This document shows, piece after piece, positions 27,008-60,809 of a stretch of 64,000 nucleotides of DNA. Every line of letters starts with the position of its first letter. The stretch's first letter is position 1. Below the pieces are notes generated by a model that saw nothing but the letters and a program-made list of their open reading frames with translations, made no database searches and was not told the DNA's origin. A program made the position numbers and the translations under genes. Source of the stretch: Rhabdothermincola salaria (lineage in GTDB: Bacteria > Actinomycetota > Acidimicrobiia > Acidimicrobiales > Acidimicrobilacustridaceae); NCBI RefSeq assembly GCF_021246445.1, contig NZ_JAJQXW010000001.1, positions 744,001 through 808,000 on the forward strand, given 5' to 3'.

Positions 27008-29008
27008 GTGAGGTTCCGGGTCACCGGCCACCGGATCGTGACGGTCGTGGTGGTGGTCGTGGGGCTGGTGGCCTCGCTCCTCGGCCCCGAGCTCGCCGCC
27101 GCCCAGCCGGAACCGTCCGAGGCGCGCATCGGGGGCACCGTCCGCCTCGCCGACATCGGCCTCGGCGGCTACGAGGTGGCCCTGGTGGCCGCCGCCGATG
27201 CCGAACCGATGATCCTGGCCACGGCGACCGCCGATGGCGCAGGAGCCTTCGAGCTCGTGCTCGAGGGGAGCCCCCCGCCACGGGCGGTGCTGTACCTGGT
27301 GGCCAGCGCGCCCGACCCCCCGAGGGCATCGCTGGACCTCCGCCTCGTCAGCGTGCTCGGCGTGGGCACCGTCCCCGGCACGGCGGTGGTCAACGAGATG
27401 ACCACGGTGGCGGCCGCCTACGCCCTGGCCCGCTTCACCGCGCCGGGCACCAACGTCGTCCGGGGCCCGGACCCGGGGCTCCCGAACGCCGTGGGGATGG
27501 CCCACAACCTCGTCGATCCGTCCACCGGGGAGGCCGGCGTCGTCCTGCGCACCGCCCCGAACGGCGACGAGACCTCCACCCTGTCCACCGTCAACTCGCT
27601 CGCCAACATGGTCGTCGCCTGCGGCGACTCGGCCGCGGCATGCGGTGCGCTGCGCCGGGCCGCCACCTCTCCGGAGGGGCTCGTCCCCGCCGACACCCAC
27701 CAGGCCCTGGTGAACGTGGCTCGCGACCCGTGGAGCTCGGCCACCGAGCTCTTCGTGGTGGCCACGCGGGGGTCGGTGCCTCGCCAGCCCGCCCGGGTCG
27801 CGGCTCCCGAGGCCTGGACCGTCGCCCTGCGCTTCGCCGGTGACGGCCGCACGATGAACGGCCCGGGCAACGTCGCCGTCGACCACGAGGGCAACCTCTA
27901 CGTCGGCAACAGCTACGAGTACTCCCCGGACCCGACCGAACCGGTGTGCGCCGGCGAGGCGCTGCTGAAGTTCTCGCCGGACGGGCGCCACGTGCCCAGC
28001 TCCCCCTTCACGGGCGGCGGTCTGAACGGACCCGGTCACGGCGTCACCATCGACCCCTTCGGTGACGTGTGGGTGGGCAACTACGGCGCTGCCGCGCCGG
28101 GTTGCACCCAGGGGGATCAGCCCTCCCACGACAGCGTGTCCCGTTTCACCCTGGAGGGCACCGCGGTGTCGCCGCCTCGTGGCTACACCCAGGGGTCGGT
28201 CGACTGGCCCCAGGGCACGGGGGCAGACGATCGAGGCTCGATCTGGATCGCCAACTGCGGGTCCGACAGCGTGACCCTCTACTCGATGGGCGATCCCACC
28301 CGGCCGCGTACCCTCACCGACCTGGGCGTGAGCCAGCCCTTCGACGTGGCCTTCGACGACGAGGGCAACGCGTTCATCACCGGTGTCGGGAGCAGCAGCG
28401 TGGCCGTGCTCGATCCCGATGGACGACCCCGGCCCGGTTCCCCGCTCACCGGCGACGTGTTCAACCGGCCGATGGGCATCGCCGCCGACCAGGCCGGCAA
28501 CCAGTGGGTGGCCAACTCCGGGTTCGTGGAGCCCCCCTGCCCGGGGCGGGCCGGCACCGACGGCACCAAGGGATCCGTCGCGCTCATCAGTGCCGAGGGC
28601 GAGCCGGTGGCCGCGTTCGAGGGCGGTGGCCTGACCATCCCGTGGGGCATCGCCGTCGACGGTGACGACAACGTCTGGATCTCGAACTTCGCCGGCAAAC
28701 GCATCTCCCAGTTCTGCGGGGTGCCCGCCACCGACTGCCGCCCGGGTGGGTCGGTCGGGTCGGCCATCTCCCCGGACGCCGGCTACGGCTTCGACGGGCT
28801 CACTCGATCCTCGGCAGTGGCGATCGACCCCTCCGGCAACGTGTGGGCCACGAACCACTGGAAGGAGATCCCGGTGCCCACCAACCCGGGTGGCTACCAG
28901 ATCGTCGCCTACGTCGGCCTCGCCGCCCCGGTGCAACCCGCCGTGCCCCGAGCCCGACCGGCCGCCCCGGCGGTCGCCGTTGTCGCCCTGCCCACCTTCA
29001 CCGGTTGA
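27008..29008 (+). CDS. Secreted NHL-repeat (beta-propeller) protein
   Basis: Signal peptide ending AAA-Q; repeated P.G(I/V)A(V/I)D..GNVW(V/I).N units; ends ...VALPTFTG. Confidence 0.82.
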   Translation: MRFRVTGHRIVTVVVVVVGLVASLLGPELAAAQPEPSEARIGGTVRLADIGLGGYEVALVAAADAEPMILATATADGAGAFELVLEGSPPPRAVLYLVASAPDPPRASLDLRLVSVLGVGTVPGTAVVNEMTTVAAAYALARFTAPGTNVVRGPDPGLPNAVGMAHNLVDPSTGEAGVVLRTAPNGDETSTLSTVNSLANMVVACGDSAAACGALRRAATSPEGLVPADTHQALVNVARDPWSSATELFVVATRGSVPRQPARVAAPEAWTVALRFAGDGRTMNGPGNVAVDHEGNLYVGNSYEYSPDPTEPVCAGEALLKFSPDGRHVPSSPFTGGGLNGPGHGVTIDPFGDVWVGNYGAAAPGCTQGDQPSHDSVSRFTLEGTAVSPPRGYTQGSVDWPQGTGADDRGSIWIANCGSDSVTLYSMGDPTRPRTLTDLGVSQPFDVAFDDEGNAFITGVGSSSVAVLDPDGRPRPGSPLTGDVFNRPMGIAADQAGNQWVANSGFVEPPCPGRAGTDGTKGSVALISAEGEPVAAFEGGGLTIPWGIAVDGDDNVWISNFAGKRISQFCGVPATDCRPGGSVGSAISPDAGYGFDGLTRSSAVAIDPSGNVWATNHWKEIPVPTNPGGYQIVAYVGLAAPVQPAVPRARPAAPAVAVVALPTFTG

Positions 29009-29107
29009 GCCGCCCCCGTCGGCTACGTTGCCGCTGGGTTCCGGGTCCGCCTTCTGGGAGGTAGCGCCATCAACGTCCTCGCCGCGGCCGCCTCCGCCAG
29101 CGACCTC

Positions 29108-30454
29108 ATGGCCGCTCGCCAGCAGATGGCGTTCACCCTGGGGTTCCACATCGTGCTCGCCTGCCTCGGCGTGTCGTTCCCGGCCATCGCGCTCATCGCC
29201 AACTACCGCGGCATCCGCCACGGCGACGCCGAGGCCATGTTGCTGGCGCGCCGGTGGGCCAAGGCCATGGCGGTGCTCTTCGCCGTGGGGGCCGTCACGG
29301 GCACGCTGCTGTCGTTCGAGCTGGGCCTGCTCTGGCCCGGTCTCTTCGAGCAGTTCGGTGACGCCTTCGGTCTGCCGTTCGGCTACGAGGGCCTCTTCTT
29401 CTTCACCGAGGCCATCTTCATCGCCATCTACATCTACGGCTTCGACCGCCTCTCGCCCTGGAAGCACTTCCTGTCGGGCATCCCCATCGTGCTGGCGGGC
29501 ATCGGCGGCACCTTCTCCGTGGTGGCCGCCAACGCCTGGATGAACCAGCCGGGAGGCTTCGAGATCGGCGCCGATGGTCGCCTCTCGGAGGTCAACCTCT
29601 TCGGGGTCCTCTTCAACGACGGCGTCTGGCACCAGGTACCGCACATGTTGCTGGCCGCCTACATCGTGAGCGGGTTCGGTGTGGCCTCGGTCTACGCCTT
29701 CGCGATGCTGAAGGGACGGCGCGACCGGTACCACAAGGTGGGCCTGCTCATCCCGCTCACCGTGGCGGCCATCGCCATGCCGCTGCAGATGTTCGTCGGA
29801 GACTTCGCCGCCCGCCAGGTGTTCGACAACCAGCCCGTCAAGTTCGCGGCCATGGAGATGGTGCCGACGACCTCCACCGACGTCCCCGAGATCTTGCTCG
29901 GCCGCTACGTCGACGGGGAGGTCGAAGGCGGCATCCGCATCCCCGGCCTGGCCTCGCTGCTGTCGGGGTTCAGCACCGACACCGAGATCCAGGGCCTCGA
30001 CACCGTCCCGCCCGAGGACCGCCCGCCCGTCACCATCGTGCACTGGGCGTTCGACGTGATGGTGGGCATCGGCACCGCGCTCTTCGGCCTGGCGGTCTGG
30101 TTCGGGTTCGTGTGGTGGCGCAAACGTCGGATCCCGAACACCGACTGGTTCCTGCGGGCGGTGGCCGTCTCAGGTATCGCCGCCGTGGTCGCGACCTGGG
30201 CGGGGTGGGTGGTCACCGAGGTCGGCCGCCAGCCGTGGGTGGTCTACGGCTACCTGCGCACCGAGGACGCCGTCACCTCCCAGGGCGGCCTCTGGTACTG
30301 GTTCGCCGGCATCGTCGGCATCTACACGCTGCTCGGGGTCACCGCCGTCGTCGTGCTGCGACGCATGGCCCGACGCTGGCGCGAGGAGGCGGCGGTCGGC
30401 TCGCCCTACGGCCCCGACGTGCACGACGAGAAGACCCCCGAAGGGGCGTCGTGA
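29108..30454 (+). CDS. cydA: Cytochrome bd ubiquinol oxidase subunit I
   Basis: ARQQMAFTLGFH, FELGLLWP, NAWMNQP, QPVKFAAME, GWVVTEVGRQPW; start may be ATC at 29069. Confidence 0.95.
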   Translation: MAARQQMAFTLGFHIVLACLGVSFPAIALIANYRGIRHGDAEAMLLARRWAKAMAVLFAVGAVTGTLLSFELGLLWPGLFEQFGDAFGLPFGYEGLFFFTEAIFIAIYIYGFDRLSPWKHFLSGIPIVLAGIGGTFSVVAANAWMNQPGGFEIGADGRLSEVNLFGVLFNDGVWHQVPHMLLAAYIVSGFGVASVYAFAMLKGRRDRYHKVGLLIPLTVAAIAMPLQMFVGDFAARQVFDNQPVKFAAMEMVPTTSTDVPEILLGRYVDGEVEGGIRIPGLASLLSGFSTDTEIQGLDTVPPEDRPPVTIVHWAFDVMVGIGTALFGLAVWFGFVWWRKRRIPNTDWFLRAVAVSGIAAVVATWAGWVVTEVGRQPWVVYGYLRTEDAVTSQGGLWYWFAGIVGIYTLLGVTAVVVLRRMARRWREEAAVGSPYGPDVHDEKTPEGAS

Positions 30455-31494
30455 ACCTCGCCGACCTCGTCGCCCTCGTCCTCTGGCTCGGCGTCAGCGC
30501 CTACGCGGTGCTGGGCGGGGCCGACTTCGGCAGCGGCTTCTGGGACCTCACCGCAGGAGGGGCCCAACGCGGTGCCCGGCCGCGGGCCCTCGTCGACCTG
30601 GCCATCGGCTCGGTGTGGGAGGCCAACCACGTCTGGCTCATCTTCTGCCTCGTCGTGCTCTGGACGGCGTTCCCGCCGGCCTTCGTGGCCATCATGACCA
30701 CGCTCTTCGTGCCGCTCATGATCGCGGTCATCGGCATCTTGCTGCGGGGGTCGGGCTTCGCGTTCCGTCACGTCACCCGGGAGTTCGGCGCCCGGCGCGC
30801 CTTCGGCGTGGCGTTCGCGGTGTCGTCGATCGTGACCCCGTTCGCCATGGGGACCATCGCCGGCGCCATCGCCTCGGGTCGGGTGCCCCTCGACGGGTCG
30901 GGCGACCAGATGACGAGTTGGATCAACCCCACGTCCGTCTTCGCCGGGGTGCTCGCCGTCGCCACCTGTTCGTTCTTGGCCGCCACGTTCCTCGTCGACG
31001 AGGCCCGCCACCGCGACGACGCCGGTCTCGTCGAGTACTTCCGGCGCCGGGGCATCGGCGCCGGCATCGCCACCGGGGTGCTGGCCCTGGTGGGCATCGT
31101 CGTGCTGCGGGGCGACGCCGAGTGGCTCTTCGATCGTCTGGTCGGTCGGGCCCTGCCCCTGCTGATCCTGTCCGGACTCGGGGGCCTCGGCGCCATGTGG
31201 GCCCTTCACCGCCTGCGTCCGGCGCTCGCCCGGGTCCTCGCCGTGGTCGCCGTCGGAGCGGTCGTGTGGGGGTGGGGGGTGGCGCAGTACGACTACATGC
31301 TGCCTACCACGCTCACCATCGAAGAAGCCGCCGCGCCGTCGGGCACGATGTGGGCCCTCGTCGGCGTCGTGGTGCTGGCCGTGCTCATCGTCGGCCCGGC
31401 CCTGTGGCTCCTGCTCAGCCTCAGCCAGCAGAACCGCCTCGAGACCGAGGACCTGTCCGAGGTGGCCGCCGAGAACGTCCCCCACGGCCGCTGA
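30451..31494 (+). CDS. cydB: Cytochrome bd ubiquinol oxidase subunit II
   Basis: YAVLGGADFG.G, WEANHVWLI, LRGSGFAFR; GTGA overlap with cydA. Confidence 0.95.
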   Translation: MNLADLVALVLWLGVSAYAVLGGADFGSGFWDLTAGGAQRGARPRALVDLAIGSVWEANHVWLIFCLVVLWTAFPPAFVAIMTTLFVPLMIAVIGILLRGSGFAFRHVTREFGARRAFGVAFAVSSIVTPFAMGTIAGAIASGRVPLDGSGDQMTSWINPTSVFAGVLAVATCSFLAATFLVDEARHRDDAGLVEYFRRRGIGAGIATGVLALVGIVVLRGDAEWLFDRLVGRALPLLILSGLGGLGAMWALHRLRPALARVLAVVAVGAVVWGWGVAQYDYMLPTTLTIEEAAAPSGTMWALVGVVVLAVLIVGPALWLLLSLSQQNRLETEDLSEVAAENVPHGR

Positions 31495-31512
31495 CGTGCC
31501 AGCATCGGTGCC

Positions 31513-32658
31513 ATGAGCGACGCCGCGTCCCGCGCCTATGCCGCCGGTCTCCCGAACCCCGAGTTCGCCACCACGGCCCGCACCGAGCCCAAGGCGTTGT
31601 CCCAGGCCACCGTCGCCATCGTCACCACCGCCGCCATCCACCATCCCGGCGACGAGGGCTTCAGCTTCGACGACACGGGCTTCCGGGTCATCGACCAGGA
31701 TCGCCCCGAGGTCGTCATGGGGCACTGGAGCCCCAACTTCGACCACGCCGGCTTCGCCGCCGACCCCGAGGTCGTGCTGCCGCGAGCACGCCTCGCCGAG
31801 CTCGCCGACGAGGGCGTGATCGGACGGGTCGCCGCCCGCCACGTCTCCTTCGCCGGCAACCAGGAGGACACCGTCACCCGGATCCGCCTCGACTCCGGTC
31901 CGGCGGCCGGCGAGCTGCTGCGCGGCGACGGGGTCGACGTGGTGGTGCTCACCCCCGTCTGACCGCTCTGCACGCGCACCGTGTGTGTGCTCGCCCACGT
32001 CCTCGAGGCCGCCGGCCTCGCCACCGTCGCGCTCGTGTCCAACCGGGTCGTGGCCGAGAAGATGCACCCGCCGCGCGCCCTCTACGGCGAGTTCCCGCTC
32101 GGCCGACCGCTCGGCAAGCCGGGCGACCCCGCCTTCCAGCGTGACGTGCTGATGCGAGGGTTCGCCCTGCTCGACAGCCCCGAGGTGCCGGTGCTCGTCG
32201 ATCACCCCGAGGTCATCGAGATCGACGAGACGCCGCTCGCCTGTGCGCTCCCGCCCCGCTACGACACCTCGGTGCCGGCGGCCGTCGACGAGGCGCGGGC
32301 TCTGCGCCCGGCATGGGACCGCAGCCTCGACCGTCTGGGGCTCACCTCGGTCGGGCGGGTCACCGACGCCGACGGCATCCCCGATCTGGTCGGCCGGCTG
32401 GTCCGCATCGCCGAGGGCGAGCGGTGGGACGAGGTCGGCCTCCCGGGCGACCCGGTCAGCTGCGCCCACGACCTGCGCACCTACTACGAAGAGGCGGCCA
32501 TCGCCCTGGCCGACGACGTGACCGGCGGTTCCGCCGAGGTCTGGTTCTCCGAGGTCACCGAGGCCGGCCAGACGCTCCTGGCCGCCCGGCGGCGCATGAA
32601 GGAGCAGGACGCCCCGTTCGCCTTCTGGTTCTACATGGCCGCAGGCGTGCGCTCCTGA
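31513..32658 (+). CDS. PrdB/GrdB-family (glycine/betaine/D-proline reductase B-like) selenoprotein, Sec at TGA 31960-31962, 381 aa
   Basis: Track ORFs 31513-31962 and 31981-32658 are in one frame. Readthrough gives DGVDVVVLTPV-U-PLCTRTVCVLAHVLEAAGLATV (UxxC); also VAIVTTAA, DP.VVLP, EG.IG, PPRAL..FPLGRPLG. Confidence 0.85.
31970..31990 (+). promoter_or_regulatory. Candidate bacterial SECIS element
   Basis: GCACGCGCA-CCG-UGUGUGUGC: 8-9 bp stem with two G-U pairs, beginning 8 nt after the UGA. Confidence 0.55.
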
Positions 32659-32721
32659 ACAGGGAGGCGCGCCGGCGTGGGGTCACCGACCGGTCCGTCC
32701 GCAGGTGCTGGACTGGCCCCG

Positions 32722-33588
32722 ATGAGTTCCCCGCCCCAGCCCGACACCGATGCATCCGGCCCCGACCGGGCCGGGCCGAAGCGCTGGTGGCGTCGCCGCG
32801 CCGCCGCCCGCGCCGCCGCCCGGGAGACGCCCGCCTACGCGGCCTACGTGGCCCGCACCGAGGCGTATCTCGACCTCTTCGCGCTGGTCACCATCTGGCT
32901 GACGGTCGTGCCCATGACCCCGAGCCTGCGACCCGACCAGGGGTGGGGCTGGGACGTCGGTCGCATGGCGCTGTCGGTCGTCTTCGGCGTCGACCTGCTC
33001 GTCCGCTCCCGTCTCTCCGGGCAGGGATGGCGCTACGTGAGCCAGCACCCCGCGCTGAGCCTGGCCGTCATCGTCCCCCCGGTGCGCATCCTGTTCAGCC
33101 TCCGGTTGCTGCGCTCCATGTTCGCCCGCGGGAACCTGGCCCAGTTCCTCGTCGTCGCCGCGCTCTTGGTGCTCAACGGAGCCGTCATCGTCTTCGCGTT
33201 CGAGTCAGGCGCCGAGGGCTCGAACATCGAGACGATGGGCGAGGCGCTGTGGTGGACGGCCGTCACGGTGGCCACGGTCGGGTACGGCGACTTCACGCCC
33301 GTCACCGTCGGCGGGCGCCTCACCGCCACCCTGCTCATGGTGCTGGCCATCGTGGTGGCGGCGGTGGTGACCGCCCAGATCGCGTCGAACTTCAACGACC
33401 AGGCGGCCCAGTCGCGGGGTGATGAGCGGGGCCCCGCCGACGATGGCACCGACGTTCCGACCGGGCGGGCGACCCCGCTGCCGGCGATGAGCGCCGCGCA
33501 GCACGCCGAGCTCATGGCCCGGCTCGAGCGGATCGAGGGCCTGCTGCTCGACGGGCGCGGCGACGAGACGGGTCGCGACACCAGGTGA
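32722..33588 (+). CDS. Potassium channel family protein
   Basis: ALWWTAVTVATVGYGD selectivity filter; R-rich S4-like segment. Confidence 0.9.
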   Translation: MSSPPQPDTDASGPDRAGPKRWWRRRAAARAAARETPAYAAYVARTEAYLDLFALVTIWLTVVPMTPSLRPDQGWGWDVGRMALSVVFGVDLLVRSRLSGQGWRYVSQHPALSLAVIVPPVRILFSLRLLRSMFARGNLAQFLVVAALLVLNGAVIVFAFESGAEGSNIETMGEALWWTAVTVATVGYGDFTPVTVGGRLTATLLMVLAIVVAAVVTAQIASNFNDQAAQSRGDERGPADDGTDVPTGRATPLPAMSAAQHAELMARLERIEGLLLDGRGDETGRDTR

Positions 33589-34193
33589 CGTCCCCGCCGC
33601 CACTCGAGCGACGCCCGACCCGAGCCGAACTGGCGGCCTACGACGGGGCGACCGTCGACGACCTCCTGGCCGACCCGCTCCGGCTGCTGTTCGTGGGCAT
33701 CAACCCCGGGCTCTGGACGGCGGCGGTGAACGCCCACTTCGCCCGGCCCGGCAACCGCTTCTGGCCGGCCCTGCACCGCGCCGGGATCACCTCCCACGTC
33801 GTCGACGCCTCGGCCGGGCTCACTGCTGCCGATCGGCGCGTCCTGGCCGAGGCCGGGGTGGGCATCTCCAACATCGCCCCCGTGGCCACCGCCCGGGCCG
33901 ACCAGCTCAGCGCGGCGCAGCTCTCCGAGGGCGGCGATCGCCTCCGCCGGCTGGTCGCCGAGCGGGCCCCTCGGGTGGTGGCGGTGCTCGGCGTGACCGC
34001 CTATCGCCAGGCCTTCGGCCGACGCCAGGCCGCCATCGGTCGCCAGGACGACGACTTCGAGGGCGCCGAGCTCTGGGTGCTGGGCAACCCCAGTGGACTC
34101 AACGCCCACGAGACGGTCGAAACCTTGGCGACCTGGTACCGCCGGGCGGCCCAGGCCGCCGGCGTGGCGCTGCTCGACGTCGGACCCGACTGA
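33585..34193 (+). CDS. mug: Mismatch-specific uracil-DNA glycosylase
   Basis: LFVGINPG, HFARPGNRFW, NPSGLN. Confidence 0.9.
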   Translation: MTSPPPLERRPTRAELAAYDGATVDDLLADPLRLLFVGINPGLWTAAVNAHFARPGNRFWPALHRAGITSHVVDASAGLTAADRRVLAEAGVGISNIAPVATARADQLSAAQLSEGGDRLRRLVAERAPRVVAVLGVTAYRQAFGRRQAAIGRQDDDFEGAELWVLGNPSGLNAHETVETLATWYRRAAQAAGVALLDVGPD

Positions 34194-34225
34194 GGTCGGA
34201 CCGGTGATGCGCCGTCGACGTCAGC

Positions 34226-34528
34226 TCAGGCCCGGCGGTCAGAGAGCGCCCAGGAGGCCACCGCCGATGCCCCCGCGGCGCTGACCACAGCCGGCCAGGG
34301 GCCGATCTTCTTGGCCAGGGGGTGCGACGCACCGAAGGAACCCAGGTAGACCACGCCGAGCACCGAGGTGCCGACGGGTCCGGCGTGGCGGAGCCACTCT
34401 CGGCCGGCGACCGCCCCACCGAGGGCCAGCACGGCCCCACCGAGGGGACGGACCCCGGTCTCTCGGGCGACGAGGTAGCCCCCGATCAGGGAGGCGGCGA
34501 CGACGGGGGCGGTGGGGATCCGGGCCAT
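34226..34528 (-). CDS. Small conserved-looking membrane protein
   Basis: Hydrophobic; FGASHPLAKKIGPWPAV motif. Confidence 0.7.
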   Translation of the reverse strand: MARIPTAPVVAASLIGGYLVARETGVRPLGGAVLALGGAVAGREWLRHAGPVGTSVLGVVYLGSFGASHPLAKKIGPWPAVVSAAGASAVASWALSDRRA

Positions 34529-58812: not shown

Positions 58813-59190
58813 TCAGCGCCGGTAGGTGACCACGTAGTCGACGATGGCGTCGATCTCGTCGTCGTCGAGAGTCGTCTCGTAGGCGGGCATGCCCGACTCG
58901 AAGCGACCCACGCGCACGGCGTCCTCCACCAGCACGGGATCGGGATCGAGCGCGACGAGATCCGCCCCGGTGCCTCCCGGTCGGTGGCAGGTGCCGCAGT
59001 GCTCGGCGAAGAGCGCGGCGCCGGTCACCGCGCTGTGAGCCTCGCCCATCGCCGGTCCCCGGCCGGGCTCGGCCGAGGACCCGCACCCGGTGGCGACGAG
59101 GGCGACCAGAGCCAGGGCGACCGCGACGGGCTCCCGTCGGCGTCGCAACCGCAGGCCCCGCCAGGCTCGGGTCGGATCAGGCGCCGGCAT
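58813..59190 (-). CDS. Monoheme c-type cytochrome lipoprotein
   Basis: Lipobox ATGC, CGTCH heme motif, distal GMPAY, EIDAIVDY; start overlaps the upstream gene by 14 nt. Confidence 0.85.
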   Translation of the reverse strand: MPAPDPTRAWRGLRLRRRREPVAVALALVALVATGCGSSAEPGRGPAMGEAHSAVTGAALFAEHCGTCHRPGGTGADLVALDPDPVLVEDAVRVGRFESGMPAYETTLDDDEIDAIVDYVVTYRR

Positions 59191-60277
59191 CGCCCTCGCC
59201 GGGCCGGTCGTCGACCGTCAGGCCCACGTAGTCCGGACGGCCGGCGTCGTCCCAGATCTGCCACAGCTCGAAGAAGTCCTGACCGAAGGGATCGAGGCCC
59301 CGAGCGGGCATCGACCCCCGGCTGATCGTCCAGTCCAGCGGCGCCAGCTCGACGGCGCGTGCGTAGTGCCCCTCGGCCTCCGCGTCGAAGCTGTGGCGGG
59401 CCAACCACGACGCGAGGCGCCGTTCGACCCGAGCGGCCTGCTCCTCAGGTGTGGGTGGGCGCGCCGTCCCCGAAGGTGCCTCGTGGCCGCCCATGGCCGG
59501 CAGCACTCCGTCGTGCACCCAGCGACGCAGCGCGTCGTGGTGCTCCTCGGCATCGATGCGGGTGAAGTCCTTGAACTCGTTGGTGCCCGGTGTGATCGTC
59601 GGCGGCTTCACCACCCGACCGTCCTCGTCGAGCCACACCGTGGCCGGCACGTTGGTGATGCCGTAGGTCTCGGCCACGGCGTGGTCGGCATCGAGGACGA
59701 CGGTCATGGTGGTCACCGGCGGCTCGGCGTCCTGCACCCATGGGCGGATCGCCTCAGGGGAGTCGTCGAGAGCAACGGCGACGATGTCGAGGCCGAAGGG
59801 GGAGAGCTCGTCGTGGAGGGTCTGCCAGACCGGCAGCTCGTAGCGGCACCCTCACCACGAGGACCAGGCCAACAGGACCCGCTTGCGGCGTTCCAGCGCC
59901 GGGACCTCCACGAGCGTCCCCGACAGGTCGGGGAGGCGGAGCTGGGGCGCTCGTCCACCGGCGAGGGCGGCCGCCCGCTCGTGGGCAGCATCACCGATGG
60001 AGACCACCGTGGGTCCACCGGACGGGCGAGCCACCGCGAACGGGCGCTGCAGGGCCGCGGACACCGCCGCGAGGTCGAGGCGACCATCGGCGTGCCGCGC
60101 CCCTGGATCGCGGACCGGGACACACAGGTCCCCCCGGCACAGGCCCTCGGGCTTGGGCTCCCACCCGGTGAGGCGATGGATCGCGTCGGCCTCGAGCCAC
60201 ACGCGGTCGCCGTCGTCGTGGGCGTCGACCTCGGTGTCGCCCTCCGCGGTCAGCACGGTCACGGCGCGTCGGGACAT
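59177..60277 (-). CDS. Thioredoxin-fold (ResA/TlpA/redoxin-like) selenoprotein, W-S-S-W-U-G-C, Sec at TGA 59852-59854, 366 aa
   Basis: Track ORFs 59852-60403 and 59177-59737 are in one frame. Readthrough: APQLRLPDLSG...VLLAWSSW-U-GCRYELPVWQTLHDELSPFGLDIVAVALD...YGITNVPATVWLDEDGRVV. Confidence 0.88.
59816..59853 (-). promoter_or_regulatory. Candidate bacterial SECIS element
   Basis: U-GAGGGU-gccgcuacgag-CUGCC-GGUCU-GGCAG-ACCCUC: 6-bp lower stem, 5-bp upper stem, G-starting loop 21 nt after the UGA. Confidence 0.72.
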
Positions 60278-60389
60278 GGCCGGAGCGTAGCGGGGCAGCT
60301 CTCCCGCCGGCCGGGTCGAGCGTCGTCCGGCGGTCCTCGCCGCGCAGGGGGTCCGCGAGCCGGGACGGCCGGCAGGTACCGTCCGGGCC

Positions 60390-60809
60390 ATGACCGATGA
60401 CACGCTCCTGCGCCGCGTGGCCGACGACCTCGAGATCCGCTCCGTCGTGGCCCGCCTGGCCCAGTACGCCGACGGAGGTGATCTCGACGACTACGTCGAG
60501 CTGTTCACCGAGGACGCCTTCTGGAACATGCCGGGGGCCCCTCGCCGGGGTCGCGACGACATCCGGGCCGGGGGAGAGGCCCGCCGGGCCTCGGGCGAAG
60601 CCGGTCCGGGCAGCAACAGCCGCCACATGATCACCACCATCACCGTCGACGTCGATGGCTCCGATGCAGCCGTGGCCGACTCCTACTGGCTCTTCTACGT
60701 CGACACCGCCGAGAGCCCCACCCTCAAGGTGTGCGGGTCCTACCGCGACACCTTCCGGCGCACGCCCTCGGGCTGGAAGCTGGCCCGGCGCGACGTGAGC
60801 TTCGGATGA
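60390..60809 (+). CDS. SnoaL-like / NTF2 family protein
   Basis: EIR..ARLA..AD.GD...LFTEDA, RH.ITT, GSYRD.FRRT..GWK. Confidence 0.87.
   Translation: MTDDTLLRRVADDLEIRSVVARLAQYADGGDLDDYVELFTEDAFWNMPGAPRRGRDDIRAGGEARRASGEAGPGSNSRHMITTITVDVDGSDAAVADSYWLFYVDTAESPTLKVCGSYRDTFRRTPSGWKLARRDVSFG

Follow-up and report, generated by a model that had tools for sequence, protein, structure and literature searches.

The 64,000-nucleotide stretch of Rhabdothermincola salaria DNA considered here (contig NZ_JAJQXW010000001.1, positions 744,001 to 808,000 of the forward strand; hereafter the window) contains, at positions 31513-32658, two same-frame open reading frames (ORFs) that very probably form a single gene. 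This gene would encode a cytoplasmic, stand-alone selenoprotein of 381 residues belonging to the GRDB superfamily, in which an internal UGA codon is decoded as selenocysteine (Sec) by means of a selenocysteine insertion sequence (SECIS) located directly downstream. An earlier note on this stretch, made from its letters alone, had proposed a PrdB- or GrdB-like selenoprotein of this length, split in two by the ORF caller. The elements on which the argument turns are the following.

31513..32658, plus strand: coding sequence of the predicted selenoprotein, 381 residues and terminal TGA; its ATG lies 18 nucleotides (nt) past the cydB stop, and orthologues align from residues 1-3 to residue 380.

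31960..31962, plus strand: in-frame TGA, predicted to encode selenocysteine 150 (U150), the first residue of U-P-L-C; the site is conserved and is Cys in homologues.

31969..31971, plus strand: TGC codon for Cys153, which closes the UxxC motif and is an invariant column in two alignments (one of them of 30 sequences).

31970..31994, plus strand: SECIS-type hairpin, predicted from RNAalifold, covariation and the bSECIS rules.

The window has a G+C content of about 72% throughout. The 381-codon frame running from 31513 to 32658 on the plus strand has a single interruption (the TGA at 31960-31962) before its closing TGA at 32656-32658, and the ORF caller delivers it as two pieces in the same frame, 31513-31962 (149 aa, starting with ATG) and 31981-32658 (225 aa, starting with GTG). 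Around the interruption the sequence reads ACC CCC GTC TGA CCG CTC TGC ACG CGC ACC GTG TGT GTG, so that the two pieces are joined as TPV-U-PLC-TRTV, just as the earlier note had it, and U150 of the read-through product lies within VVVLTPV-U-PLC-TRTVCVLA. Both halves have the coding signature of this genome, with a G+C content of 0.94 at third codon positions and of about 0.5 at second codon positions. Scanning the 3.9 Mb of the genome for in-frame TGAs with at least 40 coding-like codons on each side yields 42 such junctions. When 40 of these were run against Pfam (leaving out the selenoprotein gene itself and C6:6147-8846), a domain spanning the TGA was found in a single case; the other 39 have none and most are plainly tandem genes. 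The PrdB-like gene, with its TGA-spanning domain, is therefore not a chance juxtaposition of this sort. Its internal TGA most likely encodes selenocysteine.

The TGA is conserved well beyond R. salaria. In a set of 61 genomes (60 relatives and the window's own), 13 carry a full-length copy of the gene and 14 any match at all. Exactly one in-frame TGA is found in 12 of the 13 full-length copies (the own genome and 11 others, at 48-79% identity), in all 12 at the motif LTPV-U-PLC[TS]RTV, while the orthologue of the thirteenth genome (G007) has no TGA and has Cys at the site. A wider scan, of one genome per species, yields 535 relatives, and the TGA is present in all of the best 80 loci; these loci are labelled Acidimicrobiia, Acidimicrobiales, Iamiaceae, Ilumatobacteraceae, Microthrix or Actinomycetota, with two exceptions (one 'Acidobacteria' and one 'bacterium'). 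Metagenomes, scanned with an alignment of non-Sec forms only, give 78 TGA forms and 2 Cys forms among the best 80 loci. The TGA is thus not private to this assembly. Altogether the two halves are adjacent, in frame and separated by one TGA at the same codon at more than 170 loci (47-79% identity). Of 401 genomes sampled evenly from the phylum, nine have a match at E<=1e-40, eight with the TGA (R. salaria included) and one without, and the family is therefore concentrated in the order Acidimicrobiales.

Protein databases reflect both the coherence of the gene and its habitual splitting. The 120 best database relatives comprise 54 full-length proteins (372-439 aa, 45-56% identity) and 66 of 223-231 aa that match (at 62-100% identity) the C-terminal 58-60% of the query only, one of these pieces being the called protein of the R. 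salaria genome itself. This distribution is what one expects of a gene that is regularly broken at its TGA, in line with the splitting by the ORF caller that had been suspected. In 29 aligned full-length database homologues the Sec column is occupied by Cys in 16, Gly in nine, Ala in two and Ser in two, so that the homologues with Cys at the TGA that the earlier note proposed to look for do exist; at the DNA level, a Cys codon stands at the site in loci L032, L133, L184 and L211.

The database annotation amounts to a different reading, in which the TGA is a genuine stop and proteins of 149 and 225 aa are made independently. The calling of halves of 223-231 aa in 66 of the 120 listed relatives is compatible with it, as is the GTG at 31981, 19 nt past the TGA. 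That GTG lies inside the conserved hairpin, however, and no GGAGG-like Shine-Dalgarno motif is visible by eye upstream of it, which agrees with the earlier observation that the second half lacks such a motif. The constant adjacency of the halves at more than 170 loci, the 29 homologues (16 with Cys, 13 with Gly, Ala or Ser) that are single polypeptides, the single profile and single predicted fold that span the TGA, and the conservation of the nucleotides downstream as RNA structure all speak for one gene, leaving only a very slim chance to two independently translated ones.

In a midpoint-rooted FastTree of 183 proteins the forms with Cys, Ser or Gly/Ala branch from within the Sec forms, and the residue at the site changes at least 11 times. 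This fits Sec as the older state, lost repeatedly, with the caution that the tree is approximate and was built without an outgroup, so that its root is not established, and that the branch leading to the Gly/Ala clade is long.

Eleven nucleotides after the UGA begins the stem of a hairpin whose upper part consists of 6 base pairs (bp; 31974-79 with 31985-90) closed by the apical loop CGUGU (31980-84), with two further pairs forming a lower stem (31970-71 with 31993-94). The UGA-to-loop spacing is 17 nt and the minimum free energy (MFE) -12.9 kcal/mol. The bSECIS model, as given in the 2026 review PMC13188914 (Fig. 2 legend), specifies a loop of 3-9 nt with a G in the first two loop positions, a stem of 4-16 bp, a UGA-to-loop distance of 16-37 nt and an MFE <= -7.5 kcal/mol; with its stem of 6 bp and its loop of 5 nt, in which position 2 is G and the next base U, the present hairpin satisfies these constraints. 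It resembles the bacterial SECIS consensus set out there in being a coding-region hairpin just past the UGA with loop, stem, spacing and MFE in range, and differs from it in being short, in having a family-specific loop (CGUGN) and in lacking an Rfam model.

The comparative evidence for this structure is extensive. RNAalifold, applied to 12 orthologues, predicts the same stem unaided. In 143 distinct Sec-form sequences (1144 pair cells), standard pairs fill 98.8% of the cells, as opposed to 3.6-68.8% if the 3' partners are displaced by one to three columns, and three pairs show changes on both sides. None of 500 shuffles attains the observed paired fraction, the number of both-side-changed pairs or cells, or the covariation score (the number of further standard pair types is reached by 51 of the 500), figures that are inflated by the relatedness of the sequences. 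All six core pairs are in register in 138 of the 143 Sec forms; the four Cys-form genes for which DNA is available have 4, 3, 2 and 2 of the six. The most telling pair is that of columns 21 and 31 (UA in 72 sequences, CG in 68, UG in 2, other in 1), which ties the third position of the Arg155 codon, where the choice between CGC and CGT is synonymous, to the first position, 10 nt away, of codon 159 (GTG for Val or ACG for Thr). We see no protein-level reason for this coupling in the sequences, and the pair type changes at least 20 times on the tree of 183 proteins, by a rough count on what is an approximate tree. Column 30 is T in 142 of the 143 Sec forms, as the third base of TGT, AGT or GGT, and in none of the four Cys forms; this T is kept although it forces rare NNT codons. 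In R. salaria the codon concerned is TGT158, the T of which pairs with A31978, and TGT is avoided in favour of TGC both in the window (5 against 73) and genome-wide (204 against 3420, or 5.6% TGT), as the earlier note had remarked when it pointed to a hairpin at 31970-31990 built partly from this codon. That hairpin is real and conserved; considered by itself, it is thermodynamically ordinary for a 72% G+C genome.

A similar arrangement recurs in shorter PrdB-like paralogues (n=7, 29-38% identity, motif U-PVCHQTV), each of which carries a TGA. In six of the seven, different bases (CCAGAC/GUCUGG) form a stem of 6 bp in the same register, with loops of the type CGUGR in five and AGUUG in one. 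The hairpin is, by prediction from this body of comparative evidence, a SECIS. As a separate observation, some relatives hold up to four such short paralogues each (L034-L041, in genomes G047, G058, G059 and G060; 267-352 aa stop-to-stop), and one locus (L033, in G046) has a different GrdB-like TGA site, TAT-U-GTGTRC.

The machinery for decoding such a codon is encoded elsewhere in the genome, as the earlier note had anticipated for a selenoprotein. In the assembly (7 contigs, 97.8% complete), contig C4 carries selA (402.8 bits) next to selB (260.2 bits), and contig C1 carries selD (364.8 bits, with no internal stop), all three over curated cut-offs; a tRNA-Sec scores 70.6 bits and is called by ARAGORN as tRNA-SeC with anticodon TCA. 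Among the 61 genomes, selA was found in 11 of the 12 that carry the TGA form; of the other 49, 16 have it. UGA codon 150 would accordingly not be read as a stop: the hairpin, acting as a bacterial SECIS, would recruit SelB carrying Sec-tRNA(Sec), and selenocysteine would be inserted with the products of the selA, selB, selD and tRNA-Sec genes that the genome supplies.

The protein itself belongs to the GRDB superfamily. The Pfam GRDB family (PF07355), which the earlier note had suggested searching, matches the N-terminal half of the read-through protein at 23.5 bits (cut-off 22), and a six-frame search of the genome with the same family finds it as a single occurrence (24.4 bits). The NCBIfam PrdB model (TIGR04483) aligns over positions 24-213 of its 238 with residues 26-215, across the TGA, at an E-value of 5.7e-28. 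AlphaFold, given a 30-sequence alignment, predicts a single compact fold (predicted local distance difference test, pLDDT, 92.3; predicted template modelling score, pTM, 0.90) in which strand 143-147 and helix 153-166 of an alpha/beta domain are connected by a turn that holds U150; a helical domain comes after it, at residues 256-373. The end of a strand and the start of a helix is the usual place of a redox-active UxxC pair. The protein would thus be made up of two parts.

31591..32223, plus strand: Rossmann-like alpha/beta core, residues about 27-237, common to PrdB and GrdB; predicted from the TIGR04483 match, AlphaFold and VIA-align.

32260..32655, plus strand: helical C-terminal domain, residues about 250-381, predicted to be family-specific; it contains the AlphaFold helices at 256-373 and is absent from the PrdB model.

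The core, which holds the UxxC motif, also contains an invariant FPLGRPLGxP loop. Comparison with known structures adds little beyond its general type: Foldseek against the PDB returns no match at E<=0.001, a profile search of PDB sequences returns none either, and the best VIA-align hits (Z 8.7) are generic LacI- or SDR-type alpha/beta domains covering residues 27-237 only. The C-terminal extra region extends about 165 residues past the end of the PrdB alignment, bearing out the extra region of about 150 aa announced in the earlier note, and no Pfam family matches these last 165 or so residues. A phmmer search of residues 232-381 against 1.84 billion representatives gives 182 matches at E<=0.001; among the 150 listed, the longer ones, for which the context was examined, are full- or half-length proteins with the domain at the positions expected for the family, and many others are shorter pieces. 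A fusion partner for the domain was considered on the strength of one match of 1019 aa (P0134) and rejected, this being a spurious-looking long high-GC ORF with no Pfam domain.

The invariant Cys153 and the position of UxxC at the N-terminus of a helix bear on another function that could be imagined for the UGA, namely that of a selenium-sensing switch in which the UGA and SECIS set the proportion of full-length to 149-aa product according to selenium supply. Sec decoding competes with termination, and the Gly, Ala and Ser homologues show that folding does not depend on the residue, both of which would suit such a switch. Set against this, Cys153 and the helix position point to chemistry, and Cys is the commonest replacement at the site (16 of 29). 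We consider a switch very unlikely as the explanation of the site; it could in any case co-exist with a catalytic selenoprotein, the reading preferred here.

Whether this catalytic selenoprotein is a true PrdB or GrdB, acting within a D-proline, glycine or betaine reductase complex whose pyruvoyl partner lies elsewhere in the genome or has diverged beyond recognition, is a more serious question. Its best NCBIfam match is the PrdB equivalog model; several relatives are named 'D-proline reductase (dithiol) PrdB' by the Joint Genome Institute (JGI); and UxxC is the motif listed for PrdB and GrdB in Table 3 of PMC1088965 and in a table of PMC13188914. The scores tell otherwise: PrdB (TIGR04483) gives 98 bits where the cut-off is 300, GrdB (TIGR01917) 31.5 where it is 602.2 and the selenoprotein-B subfamily (TIGR01918) 39.9 where it is 65.45, with the GrdF and GrdH models also far under their cut-offs. 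Neither PF09338 (PrdA/GrdE) nor PF04723 (GrdA) was found in the 97.8%-complete genome, in searches run without a positive control. No prd or grd family occurs in an adjoining gene or among the ten largest flanking clusters of 80 related loci, where no cluster is recurrent. The extra domain of about 165 aa is missing from the 238-position PrdB model, and carriers of the gene encode aerobic respiration, as exemplified by the adjoining cydAB. We therefore hold a genuine reductase subunit to be improbable.

Comparison with the individual family members leads to the same place. The D-proline reductase selenoprotein PrdB was reportedly described from Clostridium sticklandii by Kabisch et al. in 1999, as cited in PMC1088965 and PMC13188914. 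With PrdB, the present protein shares its best profile match, a UxxC motif with Sec and a core of similar size, the likeness being one of alignment to the profile model; it differs in its added helical domain, in the lack of any PrdA or prd operon found, and in the aerobic respiration encoded by its carriers. With GrdB, GrdF and GrdH it shares the Pfam family PF07355 and the UxxC motif, its core aligning to the C-terminal half of the GrdB-type models (for example to positions 203-421 of 435); unlike GrdB, it lacks the N-terminal half of about 200 aa, and it scores 31-44 bits against cut-offs of 602-800, with GrdA and GrdE not found. On this sequence evidence, and as a correction to the earlier proposal, it is PrdB/GrdB-like at the superfamily level only, and almost certainly not a subunit of proline or glycine reductase.

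A number of observations weigh against the interpretation of 31513-32658 as a stand-alone selenoprotein of this superfamily. Besides the low family scores just given, which count here as well, as do the partner searches, the GRDB match is only marginally over the Pfam threshold. The hairpin alone is unexceptional (z = -1.64, 12 of 200 shuffles folding at least as well) and no Rfam SECIS family matches it, the sole Rfam match being a chance-level miRNA (E 8.6). One holder of the TGA form (G038, 84% complete, in 510 contigs) showed no selA. As many as 13 of the 29 full-length homologues have no redox residue at the site, and those with Gly, Ala or Ser do without the Sec residue or do something else. 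The gene is patchy and accessory in its distribution (13 of 61 genomes), and a genome of the same genus that is 100% complete and has selA is without it. Finally, one copy (L026 and L038, G033:C2:162850-163987) changes frame near residue 79, through either a frameshift or an assembly error, while retaining the TGA and the hairpin. This frame change in a relative, and the very presence of a stop codon, could be taken as signs of a pseudogene or an assembly error, that is, of a nonsense mutation private to the R. salaria genome. With the same TGA found in independent assemblies of many sources, the coding signature and conserved residues of both halves, and the presence of the Sec machinery, such an explanation is extremely improbable.

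If the gene is indeed a selenoprotein gene, its product may, by analogy, follow the chemistry of the selenium subunit found in the proline and glycine reductases. In this scheme the selenol of Sec150 would attack a bound substrate or disulfide, a Se-S bond with Cys153 would then form (the selenenyl-sulfide couple proposed for PrdB and GrdB), and this bond would be re-reduced by a thiol system such as thioredoxin. The enzyme would act alone, with neither a pyruvoyl partner (PrdA/GrdE) nor GrdA, and the helical C-terminal domain would be the likeliest site for substrate or partner. One may go further and tentatively regard the long-form PrdB-like proteins as a class of their own, pyruvoyl-independent selenol/thiol reductases that sustain the Sec machinery. 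Sec would be ancestral in such a class, since the non-Sec forms are nested inside Sec clades; the private helical domain might bind a small molecule, for instance an osmolyte or an amino-acid derivative; and the protein, together with a Prx-like UGC protein described below, might keep the costly Sec machinery alive in oxygen-respiring Acidimicrobiia in which, as in this genome, neither a formate dehydrogenase nor a SelD containing Sec is seen. This broader proposal is a possibility that we put forward with considerable reserve.

The genetic context gives no indication of function. The gene is preceded by cydA and cydB (29108-31494, plus strand) and followed by a K+ channel gene (32677-33588, plus strand), with gaps of 18 nt to cydB and to the K+ channel gene, and a UDG-family gene is also nearby. 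None of 92 related loci has cydA, cydB or the K+ channel gene beside the orthologue, and gene order therefore differs locally in this genome; in relatives of the same genus, saccharopine-dehydrogenase-like, UDG-family and DAP-dehydrogenase-like genes are found nearby. A functional link with cytochrome bd was considered and rejected because the neighbourhood is not conserved. The largest flanking cluster, an acyl-CoA synthetase, occurs at 12 of 80 loci, and the ten largest are ordinary metabolic genes (acyl-CoA synthetase, enoyl-CoA hydratase, SDR, sulfatase, acyl-CoA dehydrogenase, TetR and others). Scans of 28900-34300 for promoters and terminators returned nothing.

PrdB-type UxxC selenoproteins have been known from ocean metagenomes since 2005, and the present gene is a further one. 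'Proline reductase PrdB' was the third most abundant selenoprotein family in the Sargasso Sea, with 42 sequences (PMC1088965), and PrdB selenoproteins were among the top families in data from Global Ocean Sampling (GOS), with 235 sequences from 38 samples assigned to pfam07355 (PMC2398784); they also appear in the genome surveys PMC1794560 and PMC5029168. The ocean-survey 'PrdB' shares with our protein the UxxC motif, the Pfam family, an abundance in oxic surface water and a status of prediction only, a comparison made by description in which the long form and the short paralogues are not distinguished; marine contigs, one of them from TARA, are among the relatives found here. The protein may account for part of the 'PrdB' signal in oxic-ocean metagenomes. 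Literature searches turned up no account of the long-form subfamily in Acidimicrobiia, of its SECIS or of its stand-alone status, though supplementary tables may list such sequences, and a 2026 preprint on Actinomarina selenoproteins makes no mention of PrdB.

Acidimicrobiia are abundant in soil, sludge, fresh water and the sea. In public data the gene mostly appears as an isolated C-terminal half, and some copies are labelled D-proline reductase; both annotation errors distort metabolic reconstructions of these organisms. The hairpin, for its part, is a clean and richly sampled instance of a predicted coding-region SECIS; it imposes rare codons and links a synonymous position to an amino-acid replacement, and is accordingly well suited for testing SECIS prediction tools and SelB recognition in Actinomycetota. 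As a single gene whose carriers include, by their record titles, the cultured genera Ilumatobacter and Microthrix, the selenoprotein gene is also a tractable target for finding the function of environmental 'PrdB' proteins.

A second split selenoprotein candidate lies in the window at 59177-60490 on the minus strand, with its TGA at about 59852-59854. This TGA, in the motif LLAWSSW-U-GC-RYELP, falls within an AhpC-TSA/Redoxin domain (PF00578) that covers residues 178-294 of the stop-to-stop frame, and the candidate resembles the 'Prx-like (UGC-containing)' family of Table 2 of PMC2398784. One TGA is present in 24 of 29 matches among relatives. A hairpin (CUGCC-GGUCU-GGCAG) is found 15 nt past the UGA, and its fold is no better than that of shuffles. 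A Sec-containing FdhA was not found in the genome (best TIGR01553 match 88 bits, with no internal stop), and selD, as said, has no internal stop; the PrdB-like and Prx-like UGC proteins are therefore the only candidates in a rough scan whose thresholds are strict and may miss others. According to PMC1794560, a generalisation made in 2006 held every selenoproteome to contain FdhA or SelD, and the two-candidate selenoproteome of R. salaria would depart from it. The genome also encodes, at G000:C2:720540-722183 (minus strand), a protein of the UGSC family (PF24696) in the Cys form CGSC, starting just past the TGA stop of the upstream gene; UGSC is a known selenoprotein family elsewhere.

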